From: a virus
Lineage: Duplodnaviria; Heunggongvirae; Uroviricota; Caudoviricetes
Strand: one strand, 5' to 3'
IMG/VR virus record: IMGVR_UViG_2690316121_000006
Length of the DNA stretch: 64,000 bases
The notes beneath the pieces were generated by a model. That model made no database searches, was not told the origin of the DNA, and worked only from the letters and a program-made list of their open reading frames with translations. Positions 19,538 through 24,320 of this stretch are shown piece by piece. A program made the position numbers and the translations under genes. Numbering within the stretch: position 1 is the stretch's first letter; the number at the start of each line of letters is the position of its first letter.

Positions 19538-19566
19538 CAACCGGCTATGTTGGCCGGTTTATTCAA
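19538..19566 (+). terminator. intrinsic terminator
   Basis: CCGGCTATGTTGGCCGG hairpin followed by TTTATT. Confidence 0.4.
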
Positions 19567-19567
19567 C

Positions 19568-19679
19568 TTATCCACAGCATAGATCCAATAAACAGATCCC
19601 AAAGAGAACCTAGGAAGATCCAAAGAAGATCCCGGATCGCTGTAAGCCGCGCCGTTCATGGCCTGAAACGGGATCAACA
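19568..19679. other. plasmid replication origin core: DnaA box plus GATC cluster
   Basis: TTATCCACA at 19568-19576 followed by six GATC sites (five as AGATCC heptamer-like repeats) within about 100 bp, directly abutting the iterons. Confidence 0.55.
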
Positions 19680-19786
19680 TTGACTATACGCGATTTTATG
19701 TTGACTGTGTGCGATTTTATGTTGACTGCACGCGATTTATTGTTGACTATACGCGACAGAAACGTTGACTGTACGCGATTTTAGAG
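19680..19786 (+). repeat. five direct iterons (incC-like)
   Basis: TTGACTRYRYGCGATTTTATG repeated five times at 21-22 bp spacing immediately upstream of repA. Confidence 0.7.
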
Positions 19787-19859
19787 CCTGAATATTCACA
19801 GCTGTTGATAACAGTCATCTAAATTAACGCCAGGCCGCGCCACACATGGAGAAACCACG

Positions 19860-20744
19860 ATGCCGGAAGAAAGTAAAGGCTTCCTTAGCGTTGAAGAAGT
19901 TGCAGGAAATACAGGAGAAATCCACAGCCTGAAGCCCAATAACAACAGCACTATACAACCCATAGCTTTGTTGCGCTTAGGTGTGTTTGTGCCAACCTTA
20001 AAATCTACCAATGTGGCGCTACGTCGCGGATCGTCAGTTACAACAAACACAACGAACGCAACCGAAGAACTATCAAGCCTCAAAATTGTTGAGCAGGAAG
20101 GCTATGAGGGAATTGAAATTCATGGTCCACGCCTGGATATGGATACTGATTTTAAGGTGTGGGTGGGCATAACCTCCGCGTTGTTTGACTATGCTCCTGA
20201 TGATGACGGCATAATCACCCTGCCATTCTCCGAGTTTGCCGATCGATGCGGCTATCCACGTAAGCGCCTTTCAAAGGCGTTCCGTAAAAGTATTGATGAC
20301 TCTCTGACACGCATTCAGCAGACAGTTGTCAAATTCCGCTTCCCGGCGGCAAAAGGTCATCTCAATAACATTAACGTCAACTTGTTGGCATATAGCAGCC
20401 TGAATACCGAGCTTGATGTTATCGAGATCCAGCCGCAAAAACAGCTATCTGAACTTTACTATGTTGACTATAAGCGAATCCTGAAGCTGAAGATGCTGGA
20501 TAAGCTCGGGCGCAAAGAGACGGCCAAGGTGCTGTATACATTCTTTGAGGCTCTACCCGCCAACCCGGCACCTGTCAGCATTGAGCGCCTTAGAGCAAGG
20601 CTTAATCTCAAATCATCCGTTAGCGTGCAAAATAGCGTTATCAGAAAAGCTATGAAAGATTTGGAAGCTATTGAATATCTTAAATTTTCAGAGATAAAAA
20701 ACGGCAGGAAAATCGGCTTCCAGATCCATAAGCGCAATCCATAA
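19860..20744 (+). CDS. repA: iteron-binding plasmid replication initiator RepA
   Basis: 294 aa, flanked on both sides by iteron arrays; the specific family call (P1/RepFIB-type) rests on a recalled motif (RLDMDTDFKVW), not a search. Confidence 0.8.
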   Translation: MPEESKGFLSVEEVAGNTGEIHSLKPNNNSTIQPIALLRLGVFVPTLKSTNVALRRGSSVTTNTTNATEELSSLKIVEQEGYEGIEIHGPRLDMDTDFKVWVGITSALFDYAPDDDGIITLPFSEFADRCGYPRKRLSKAFRKSIDDSLTRIQQTVVKFRFPAAKGHLNNINVNLLAYSSLNTELDVIEIQPQKQLSELYYVDYKRILKLKMLDKLGRKETAKVLYTFFEALPANPAPVSIERLRARLNLKSSVSVQNSVIRKAMKDLEAIEYLKFSEIKNGRKIGFQIHKRNP

Positions 20745-20747
20745 TAT

Positions 20748-20999
20748 TGACTATATGCGATAGCGAGAAGTTGACTATAGGCGACATTCGTTGACGCTGG
20801 TGGATTTTTGCTGGCGTCAATATTCTGCAAGTCGCTATTGAGATGGCTTTTAGGGTCATTTCATCGCGTATAGTCAACGTTTCTCCCGACAATATCTTAC
20901 ATAGTCGATTTTTGGTGGAGTTAAATCGACTACAGTCAACTTTTGACTGTAGTCACATCGCGCATAGTCAACTATTCACATTAACTTTCGCGCATAGTC
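20748..20999. repeat. iteron array in both orientations (incA-like copy-control locus)
   Basis: About nine copies of the TTGACTAYAKGCGA core, direct and inverted; contains a Chi octamer GCTGGTGG. Confidence 0.65.
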
Positions 21000-21036
21000 A
21001 ACATTTGCGCGGTTCTCATCAAGCAGTGGTATTGAT

Positions 21037-21846: not shown

Positions 21847-21853
21847 CACTGAT

Positions 21854-21875
21854 GCCCCTGAACGGGGCTTTTTTG
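21854..21875 (+). terminator. intrinsic terminator
   Basis: GCCCC-TGAAC-GGGGC followed by TTTTTT. Confidence 0.55.
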
Positions 21876-22014
21876 TGCCCTCCTTGCAACTCTCTATCGT
21901 GCAAAATGAACCAAACATGCAGAGAATGCTATGTACAAGCATCTACGCATACATTATTATTTTATGCAGCATTTTTAATTAAATTCAAAAATACAGCATA
22001 AAGGATGACTTTCG

Positions 22015-23211
22015 ATGAGTGATTCCAGCCAGCTTCACAAGGTTGCTCAAAGAGCAAACAGAATGCTCAATGTTCTGACTGAACAAGTACAGTTGCAAAA
22101 GGATGAGCTACACGCGAACGAGTTTTACCAGGTCTATGCGAAAGCGGCACTGGCAAAATTGCCTCTACTGACTCGAGCGAACGTTGACTATGCCGTAAGT
22201 GAAATGGAAGAAAAGGGTTATGTTTTCGATAAACGCCCTGCTGGCTCTTCAATGAAATATGCGATGTCAATTCAGAACATCATTGACATATATGAACATC
22301 GCGGAGTGCCAAAATACCGGGATCGCTACAGCGAAGCGTATGTGATTTTCATCTCCAATCTTAAAGGCGGTGTGTCAAAAACTGTATCGACGGTTTCTCT
22401 GGCGCATGCAATGCGTGCTCACCCTCATCTTCTGATGGAAGATTTAAGGATTCTGGTTATTGACCTTGATCCGCAATCTTCAGCAACGATGTTTTTAAGC
22501 CATAAACACTCTATTGGTATCGTAAACGCAACATCTGCACAGGCTATGTTGCAGAATGTAAGCCGTGAAGAGCTGTTAGAGGAGTTTATTGTTCCTTCTG
22601 TTGTACCTGGGGTTGACGTTATGCCTGCGTCGATTGACGATGCCTTTATTGCATCCGATTGGAGAGAGCTGTGCAATGAGCATCTACCGGGTCAGAACAT
22701 CCATGCAGTCCTGAAAGAAAATGTGATTGATAAGCTGAAGAGCGATTATGACTTTATCCTCGTTGATAGTGGTCCTCACCTTGACGCCTTCCTGAAAAAT
22801 GCTTTGGCCTCGGCCAATATACTGTTTACACCTCTGCCGCCTGCAACGGTTGATTTCCACTCATCGCTTAAATACGTTGCCCGCCTTCCTGAGTTGGTGA
22901 AACTCATTTCGGATGAAGGCTGCGAGTGCCAGCTTGCGACTAACATTGGTTTTATGTCCAAGTTGAGTAACAAGGCAGACCATAAATATTGCCATAGCCT
23001 GGCTAAAGAAGTGTTCGGTGGGGATATGCTTGATGTCGTCCTCCCTCGCCTTGACGGTTTTGAACGCTGCGGCGAGTCTTTTGACACTGTTATTTCAGCT
23101 AACCCGGCAACGTATGTTGGTAGTGCTGATGCATTGAAGAACGCGCGAATTGCCGCGGAAGATTTTGCAAAAGCAGTGTTTGACCGTATTGAATTTATCA
23201 GATCTAACTGA
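22015..23211 (+). CDS. parA: type Ia partition ATPase ParA
   Basis: 398 aa; deviant Walker A ISNLKGGVSKT, N-terminal extension typical of type Ia ParA; adjacent to parB and parS. Confidence 0.9.
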   Translation: MSDSSQLHKVAQRANRMLNVLTEQVQLQKDELHANEFYQVYAKAALAKLPLLTRANVDYAVSEMEEKGYVFDKRPAGSSMKYAMSIQNIIDIYEHRGVPKYRDRYSEAYVIFISNLKGGVSKTVSTVSLAHAMRAHPHLLMEDLRILVIDLDPQSSATMFLSHKHSIGIVNATSAQAMLQNVSREELLEEFIVPSVVPGVDVMPASIDDAFIASDWRELCNEHLPGQNIHAVLKENVIDKLKSDYDFILVDSGPHLDAFLKNALASANILFTPLPPATVDFHSSLKYVARLPELVKLISDEGCECQLATNIGFMSKLSNKADHKYCHSLAKEVFGGDMLDVVLPRLDGFERCGESFDTVISANPATYVGSADALKNARIAAEDFAKAVFDRIEFIRSN

Positions 23212-23227
23212 GGAGTAAGAAACCCCC

Positions 23228-24229
23228 ATGTCAAAGAAAAACAGACCAACAATTGGGCGAACCCTTAATCCTTCAATATTAAGCGGATTTGATAGTTCTT
23301 CAGCCTCTGGCGATCGAGTCGAGCAGGTATTCAAGTTATCAACTGGTCGTCAGGCCACATTTATTGAAGAGGTAATACCTCCGAACCAGGTAGAAAGCGA
23401 TACCTTTGTTGATCAGCATAACAACGGGCGTGACCAGGCATCTCTTACGCCAAAATCATTAAAAAGTATCCGAAGCACTATTAAGCATCAGCAATTTTAC
23501 CCTGCAATAGGTGTTAGACGTGCTACAGGGAAAATTGAAATTTTGGATGGTTCCCGGCGTCGAGCTTCTGCCATCTTAGAGAACGTAGGGTTGCGGGTTT
23601 TAGTCACGGACCAGGAGATCAGCGTCCAGGAAGCGCAAAATTTAGCGAAAGACGTTCAGACAGCATTGCAGCACAGCATTCGAGAAATAGGTCTGCGTTT
23701 GATGCGAATGAAAAATGATGGGATGAGTCAAAAGGATATTGCAGCCAAAGAAGGGCTGTCTCAGGCGAAGGTCACGCGTGCTCTCCAGGCAGCGAGTGCT
23801 CCGGAAGAATTAGTCGCCCTTTTCCCTGTGCAGTCGGAATTAACCTTTTCGGACTACAAAACGCTTTGTGCTGTTGGCGACGAAATGGGGAACAAGAATT
23901 TAGAGTTTGATCAGCTTATTCAAAACATATCCCCGGAAATAAACGACATCTTATCCATTGAAGAAATGGCCGAAGATGAAGTTAAAAATAAAATCCTGCG
24001 CTTGATAACAAAGGAAGCCTCACTACTCACGGATAAAGGTTCTAAAGATAAGTCCGTAGTTACTGAATTATGGAAATTTGAGGACAAGGATCGCTTTGCA
24101 AGGAAGCGCGTGAAAGGCCGTGCATTTTCTTATGAGTTTAATCGACTTTCAAAAGAGCTACAGGAAGAACTCGACAGGATGATTGGGCATATCCTTAGAA
24201 AGAGCCTCGATAAAAAGCCGAAGCCTTAA
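23228..24229 (+). CDS. parB: partition centromere-binding protein ParB
   Basis: 333 aa; GSRRRAS ParB-box-like motif and HTH (QKDIAAKEGLSQAKVTRAL). Confidence 0.85.
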   Translation: MSKKNRPTIGRTLNPSILSGFDSSSASGDRVEQVFKLSTGRQATFIEEVIPPNQVESDTFVDQHNNGRDQASLTPKSLKSIRSTIKHQQFYPAIGVRRATGKIEILDGSRRRASAILENVGLRVLVTDQEISVQEAQNLAKDVQTALQHSIREIGLRLMRMKNDGMSQKDIAAKEGLSQAKVTRALQAASAPEELVALFPVQSELTFSDYKTLCAVGDEMGNKNLEFDQLIQNISPEINDILSIEEMAEDEVKNKILRLITKEASLLTDKGSKDKSVVTELWKFEDKDRFARKRVKGRAFSYEFNRLSKELQEELDRMIGHILRKSLDKKPKP

Positions 24230-24240
24230 ACTTTCGCCAT

Positions 24241-24320
24241 TCAAATTTCACTATTAACCTACTGTTTTTAAAGTAAATTCATCTAAAATTTCAAGGTGAA
24301 ATCGCCACGATTTCACCTTG
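24241..24320. other. partition site parS (centromere)
   Basis: ATTTCAC heptamer boxes and TCGCCA hexamer; perfect 13-bp inverted repeat CAAGGTGAAATCG/CGATTTCACCTTG (24292-24320) and AT-rich IHF-like spacer. Confidence 0.6.

Follow-up and report, generated by a model that had tools for sequence, protein, structure and literature searches.

A P1-like phage-plasmid region that joins a p0111-type replicon to the P1 partition system

The 64,000-nucleotide stretch analyzed here (the window; IMG/VR virus record IMGVR_UViG_2690316121_000006, Caudoviricetes) contains a 4,783-bp block at positions 19538–24320 that an earlier note, made from the letters alone, had read as a low-copy plasmid maintenance block of a phage-plasmid. 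We read the sequence and listed the open reading frames (ORFs) over 19000–25000. We conclude that the block holds the replication and partition functions of a P1-like phage-plasmid (Punavirus) from the lineage of RCS47, SJ46, and JL22, in which a p0111 replicon is joined to the P1 partition system, and we place the probability of this reading at roughly 93%. The lineage has already been described and is common, comprising the p0111-type P1-like phage-plasmids of E. coli; the finding is thus a known and ordinary one.

Nucleotide comparison places the block firmly among known elements. Over 100% coverage it is 99.0% identical to RCS47 (FO818745 / NC_042128), and its identity to phi456, SJ46, JL22, Ro157c2YLVW, and several records labelled P1 lies between 98.2% and 98.5% (SJ46 and JL22, 98.3% each with 100% coverage). 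The genes upfA and gene 23 flank an iteron-type plasmid replicon and a type Ia parABS system, an arrangement that assigns the element to Punavirus. The upfA stop and hairpin come first, on the left, followed by a DnaA box, a GATC cluster, five iterons, repA, a second array, a 269-aa ORF with its terminator, the par promoter (Ppar), parA, parB, and parS:

19537–19553: upfA stop and hairpin
19559–19567: degenerate DnaA box, adjoining the exact left box
19568–19576 (+): left DnaA box TTATCCACA, exact; left end of oriR
19581–19638 (+): Dam-methylation (GATC) cluster, four AGATCC(A/C) heptamers and GGATCG; P1 sequence
19654–21912 (+): replicon specificity cassette (incC iterons, repA, incA, T5orf172 ORF, and terminator), no P1 nucleotide match; p0111-type replicon
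19679–19782 (+): incC origin core, five direct iterons of ~19 bp, (R)TTGACTRTRYGCGATTT, starting at 19679, 19700, 19721, 19742, and 19764
19803–19811 (−): right DnaA-like box TTATCAACA, 1 mismatch, within the palindrome CTGTTGATAACAG
19860–20744 (+): repA, 294 aa, predicted iteron-binding initiator of the Rep_3 (WH1 and WH2) family
20746–21003 (no strand): incA-like array for copy-number control; iterons direct at 20746 and 20770 and inverted at 20861, 20923, 20955, and 20985
21037–21846 (+): T5orf172-domain ORF, 269 aa, N-terminal T5orf172 (GIY-YIG-like) domain (Pfam, 4.7e-6), orphan C-terminal half
21854–21876 (+): intrinsic terminator of the T5orf172 ORF, GCCCC-loop-GGGGC (21854–21868) and TTTTTT
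21932–22017 (+): Ppar (TGTACA-17-TATTAT) and ParA operator, P1 sequence, matching Ppar and operator of P1 (P1 record L001, 4517–4602)
22015–23211 (+): parA, type Ia partition ATPase, 398 aa, N-terminal helix-turn-helix (HTH_54, 2.3e-46; AAA_31, 5.8e-24)
23228–24229 (+): parB, centromere-binding protein, 333 aa (Pfam ParB PF08775, 1.6e-44)
24234–24316 (+): parS centromere, with B1 (24234–39), A1 (24245–51), IHF site (24255–67), A2 (24288–94), A3 (24296–302), B2 (24302–07), and A4 (24310–16)

Comparison with P1 (NC_005856) by blastn revealed that the block is a mosaic. Positions 16663–19653 align to P1 at 96.9% identity and 21913–28820 at 98.7%, and the intervening 19654–21912 find no P1 nucleotide match. 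The left boundary (19653/19654) cuts oriR, separating its DnaA/GATC module from the first iteron, and the right one (21912/21913) is 66 bp past the 269-aa ORF's stop and shortly before Ppar. On these alignments, only the predicted RepA/iteron/incA specificity module has been exchanged, with the DnaA/Dam origin module, Ppar and its operator, and parA-parB-parS of P1 kept. The earlier note's description of the order as that of P1-type plasmid prophages therefore needs dividing: the elements, their order, and their spacing do match P1, but the iteron/RepA/incA cassette is of the non-P1 p0111 type. RCS47 and plasmids such as pMTY10828_p0111 share the cassette at 98–99% identity, and the p0111 assignment follows from such near-identity to p0111-named plasmids: the best plasmid match is pMTY10828_p0111 at 99.2%, and JL22, which was described as p0111, matches at 98.3%. 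For the same plasmid (NZ_CP134391.1), the MOB-suite label in PLSDB is "IncHI1B," in conflict with the depositors' p0111. An IncY (P1) replicon was considered and rejected on the missing P1 match at 19654–21912, a different iteron consensus, and a RepA of only 42% identity.

In P1-group phage-plasmids, this position is occupied by one of two replicases, IncY or p0111 (Pfeifer et al., PMC7969092). In JL22, repA' (p0111) and an unknown gene, gp57, stand in place of repA (IncY), and p0111 was found in 24 of 55 P1-like elements (PMC9603915). The description of SJ46 reported 42% identity to P1 RepA (PMC5241659), and for P1-like plasmids Venturini et al. listed altered incompatibility determinants as well as an insertion of two ORFs between repA and parA (PMC6906374).

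The origin begins with P1 sequence. The DnaA box that the earlier note had named is exact, and TTATCCACA occurs in exact form only twice in the 64 kb. The second copy (32037–32045, −) sits within repL, in the region of the lytic origin oriL in P1. P1 oriR has two tandem left DnaA boxes, whereas here one is exact and its neighbor is degenerate. The right DnaA-like box lies beyond the iterons, and its position is occupied by a perfect TTATCCACA in a related locus, L006, a 95.7-kb P1-like contig with the same iteron family, a RepA 84% identical, and a different par species (ParB 67%). Also as the note had claimed, GATC sites cluster beside the left box: five lie within 54 bp (19582–19635), four of them inside AGATCC(A/C) heptamers, and a sixth is found at 19672. 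This is the densest such cluster of the window, which averages 4.0 GATC per kb, and it aligns to Dam sites 1–5 of P1 oriR. The DnaA/GATC part as a whole is 97% identical to P1.

The five direct iterons, likewise anticipated, are spaced by 21, 21, 21, and 22 bp, equal to iterons 14–10 of P1 incC, whereas the repeat sequences themselves are unrelated ((R)TTGACTRTRYGCGATTT here, GATGTGTGCTGGAGGGAAA in P1). Counting up to 1 mismatch, the core TTGACTRTRYGCGA is found 11 times in the window. Since all of them are confined to 19680–21001 and only 0.17 would be expected, these repeats are not a product of chance.

The protein encoded between the two arrays, which the earlier note had called RepA, bears this name well. 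It falls into PHROGs family phrog_775 (2.6e-134), scores 27.3 bits for Pfam Rep3_C (cut-off 21.1), and aligns to P1 RepA with 42% amino acid identity (E 9e-71). Its predicted WH1 and WH2 domains place it in the Rep_3 initiator class with RepE, pi, and pPS10 RepA, and the gene is flanked on both sides by arrays of its putative binding repeats, as expected of that class. A search against PDB sequences returned no significant match. RepFIB-type initiators of IncF and Klebsiella plasmids (records named "RepFIB replication protein A" or "RepB family") share the initiator family, at 44–49% amino acid identity over ~97–99% of RepA. Against all plasmids, however, 392 records stand at ≥99% identity, very few between 80% and 99%, and the remainder below 60%; because of this sharp gap, the predicted initiator is a lineage separate from RepFIB, a clonal one found essentially only in P1-like elements (PMC9603915). 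An iteron-like site, TTGACTATAAGCGA, with 1 mismatch to the core, lies inside the repA coding sequence (20464–20477, +) and is kept base for base in L006 (5613–5626 region). RepA might act at this site, or coding constraint alone might have preserved it.

Across the right boundary, the sequence becomes that of P1 again, and the ParA and ParB claims of the note are borne out by Pfam domains as well as by near or full identity to the P1 proteins. Ppar is represented by a promoter-like site at 21932–21960. ParA matches P1 ParA at 397 of 398 residues (99.7%), and ParB is identical to P1 ParB over all 333 residues and equally to RCS47 ParB (100%). The A/T-rich parS centromere carries boxes of the types ATTTCAC and TCGCCA. 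Four are the heptamer boxes claimed for it (A boxes); two more are hexamers (B boxes), and an IHF site is present as well. All six boxes are identical to those of P1, and the 4 substitutions that distinguish the two centromeres fall in the IHF-bent spacer; the annotated IHF site takes two of these, both at positions outside its consensus. These identities make the element a member of the P1 par species (ParA/ParB/parS, incB). A published remark that the par proteins of RCS47 and SJ46 are P7-like is rejected on this comparison, in which ParB is 100% identical to that of P1 and 42.9% to that of P7.

The remainder of the window is also that of a P1-like genome. About 81% of its bases align, colinearly and at 94–98.7% identity, to P1 coordinates 82006 down to 19221 (~19.2–82.0 kb), and its best phage matches are RCS47, JL22, SJ46, and P1. 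Head, sheath, tail-fibre, and other structural genes are present, including gp23/22/21, with gp23 identical to P1 at 568 of 568 residues. Rfam detected the C4 antisense RNA (immI) and its targets, and three tRNAs are encoded. Colinearity with the P1 head, sheath, and tail-fibre genes, repL, and the immI C4 RNA again assigns the element to Punavirus. Outside the block, the following features bear on its identity and state:

31644–32486 (−): repL, lytic replicon
52002–52562 (−): cin, serine invertase
29817–31707, 35279–37931, 48246–51988, 60796–61479, 9325–9612, 12706–12871, and 41149–41352: segments without a P1 nucleotide match

Gaps in the P1 alignment coincide with published variable regions, namely rlf/pmgF, sim, the C-segment tail fibres, and isaA-IS1 (PMC9603915). 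In the first of these, a Lom-like outer-membrane protein gene (31033–31548, −, phrog_108) replaces rlfA/rlfB/pmgF, and four ORFs of unknown function stand in place of the sim superimmunity genes. The tail-fibre tips of the invertible C-segment differ from those of P1, and the insertion sequence (IS) that P1 carries between isaA and isaB, IS1, is missing. No integrase, recombinase, or IS was found among the ORFs of the larger non-P1 segments, where not every small ORF was scanned.

The colinearity of the window with P1, together with near-identical blocks in the phage-plasmids RCS47, SJ46, and JL22, upholds the earlier note's phage-plasmid call. Its further statement that the window holds no integrase or att site stands insofar as no lambda-type integrase and no att were seen, but a site-specific recombinase is present in the form of the Cin invertase, the only one observed. 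The description of the maintenance block as "complete" went too far. P1 stability also relies on cre-lox and phd-doc, located at P1 ~0–1.5 kb and 88 kb. Because these P1 coordinates are outside the window, what we describe is the replication and partition core and not the full stability apparatus.

How common and in what form this replicon occurs can be judged from complete genomes. Among 5426 complete E. coli genomes, 419 (~7–8%) carry the cassette (19654–21912), at 474 places, of which 466 are on plasmid records and 8 on chromosome records; this lends the plasmid reading indirect support. In PLSDB, it is found in 404 plasmids, from Escherichia (375), Salmonella (23), Shigella (4), and Klebsiella (2). 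Its carriers are mostly 90–100 kb in size, and SJ46 was sized as a plasmid of ~104 kb by S1 nuclease pulsed-field gel electrophoresis (PMC5241659).

Several observations weigh against the interpretation of the block as the core of a P1-like p0111 phage-plasmid. The Rep3_N score of RepA (22.0 bits) is marginally under its cut-off of 22.4. A sigma-70 consensus scan for a repA promoter on the + strand of the iteron region passed nothing; a weak, hand-picked candidate can be tentatively proposed, with a −35 element TTGACT inside the last iteron, a 17-nt spacer, and a −10 element CTGAAT (CTTAAT in L006). The cre-lox and phd-doc systems are not in the window, and nothing in its 64 kb shows a circular or extrachromosomal state for this particular element. 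Some cassette carriers measure 140–240 kb and are possibly cointegrates. Finally, of the 474 places where the cassette occurs in these genomes, 8 belong to records labelled chromosome; integration, misassembly, or a partial match could account for them.

The carrier sizes bear on the alternative that survives best, in which the block is intact and the element forms part of a larger cointegrate, for instance with an F-type plasmid or a resistance plasmid, or else is a P1 remnant, defective and non-inducible, that acts only as a plasmid. Carrier records of 126–240 kb exist, 98 of the PLSDB carriers are mobilizable and 10 conjugative (the other 296 being non-mobilizable), JL22 is inducible yet without lytic capacity (PMC9603915), and just 64 kb of the element is visible. 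These points are countered by a P1 synteny that runs unbroken over ~19.2–82.0 kb within the window, with no IS or resistance insert seen in it; by non-P1 segments that correspond to known variable regions (PMC9603915); and by the predominance of carriers of 90–100 kb. On balance, we regard a cointegrate or remnant as unlikely.

A second alternative concerns the array downstream of repA. The earlier note had described it as inverted; an array is indeed present, but its orientation is mixed, with 2 direct and 4 inverted clear copies. About three degenerate iterons accompany these, near 20791, 20900, and 20943. P1 incA has 3 direct and 6 inverted iterons (9), compared with ~6 clear copies here, and in both elements the direct copies come first and the inverted ones later. 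Rather than serving copy control, the repeats might be relics, or regulatory sites for the T5orf172 gene, whose start codon lies only 34 bp past the array's end; the smaller number of clear copies (6 vs 9 in P1) would fit such a view. Against it, the repeat core is identical to that of the origin and the mixed orientation mirrors P1 incA, and L006 keeps the array (1 clear direct and 1 degenerate copy, 4 inverted) although its T5orf172 protein is just 44% identical. We consider a role other than copy control very improbable. Two further elements lie in this array: a perfect 12-bp palindrome, GACTACAGTCAA-CTT-TTGACTGTAGTC (20927–20953), formed by two facing degenerate iterons, and a degenerate iteron-like element, TTGACGCTGGTGGATTTT (20791–20820), that is kept in L006.

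Integration into the chromosome with silent plasmid functions, for which the eight chromosome-record places speak, is barely credible, as 466 of the 474 places are on plasmid records, the 64 kb contain no chromosomal genes or DNA, no integrase, and no att-like junction (the features of an integrative temperate prophage), and intact ORFs with a ParB 100% identical to that of P1 argue for continued selection.

The cassette also contains a gene that the earlier note missed and that, with its terminator, is an addition relative to P1: the T5orf172-domain ORF between incA and the par promoter. In PHROGs it belongs to a family of unknown function (phrog_2876), and it found no match in NCBIfam or PADLOC. 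A word-index search of 5.8 billion proteins returned 5 clusters, consisting of its own 90% clusters and one 44%-identical protein. A full HMMER search of 1.84 billion representatives gave 79 matches with one full-length relative, the others, apart from some fragments, covering only residues ~5–120. The sole full-length relative (44% identity) is encoded in L006 (6124–6936), in the same slot between incA and parA. From this contig it follows that the gene is tied to this lineage of RepA and changes far more rapidly than RepA itself (44% vs 84% identity). The AlphaFold model of the protein is of low to moderate confidence (predicted local distance difference test [pLDDT] 64.5), and Foldseek found no match in the PDB with E below 0.7. 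The model bears a weak likeness to GIY-YIG (SLX1) and winged-helix (Rep WH1-like) structures, and the C-terminal half may adopt a winged-helix fold.

Its strict linkage to the RepA lineage, its position directly after incA, and a recombination boundary so close behind its stop raise the possibility that the protein is a functional part of the replicon cassette and not passive cargo, which we nonetheless think rather doubtful. Conceivably, it could act as a free-standing endonuclease of the homing type, cutting rival IncY P1 genomes near oriR/incA and so promoting gene conversion to the p0111 cassette; it could also conceivably be a DNA-binding accessory factor at the iteron region.

From homology to P1 and the P1 annotation, we infer how the core would operate, including iteron binding, autorepression, handcuffing, and incompatibility. 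RepA monomers would bind the five origin iterons and, together with host DnaA at the boxes flanking them and with Dam-methylated GATC heptamers as a putative opening and sequestration module, would open the origin once per cycle. RepA on the last iteron or iterons probably represses its own promoter. The incA array would titrate RepA and handcuff the origin, so that copy number would stay close to one per chromosome. On parS, ParB would assemble with IHF, and the ParA ATPase would segregate the copies and also repress Ppar.

Since the iterons and RepA differ from those of P1 while ParB and the parS boxes are identical, the element is predicted by analogy to be compatible in replication but incompatible in partition (incB) with classical IncY P1. 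If true, this incB incompatibility qualifies the published suggestion that IncY and p0111 types can coexist. For annotation, it is useful that the contig can be recognized as a phage-plasmid; P1-like p0111 is the appropriate type for it, and neither chromosomal prophage nor ordinary plasmid would fit. P1-like p0111 elements are known carriers of extended-spectrum β-lactamase genes. The replicon cassette also harbors a T5orf172 gene restricted to this lineage; neither this gene nor the predicted incompatibility alters the already-described status of the system.

Among known systems, P7 is the same kind of phage-plasmid with the same gene order; because its ParB is only 42.9% identical, our element belongs to the P1 par species and not to that of P7. 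Its closest counterparts are RCS47, SJ46, and JL22, which have the same repA, T5orf172 gene, and parAB-parS, with the same flanking upfA and gene 23, and differ within the block by point differences only. These three elements carry resistance inserts elsewhere (SHV-2, CTX-M-27, and CTX-M-55), whereas none is seen in the window described here.

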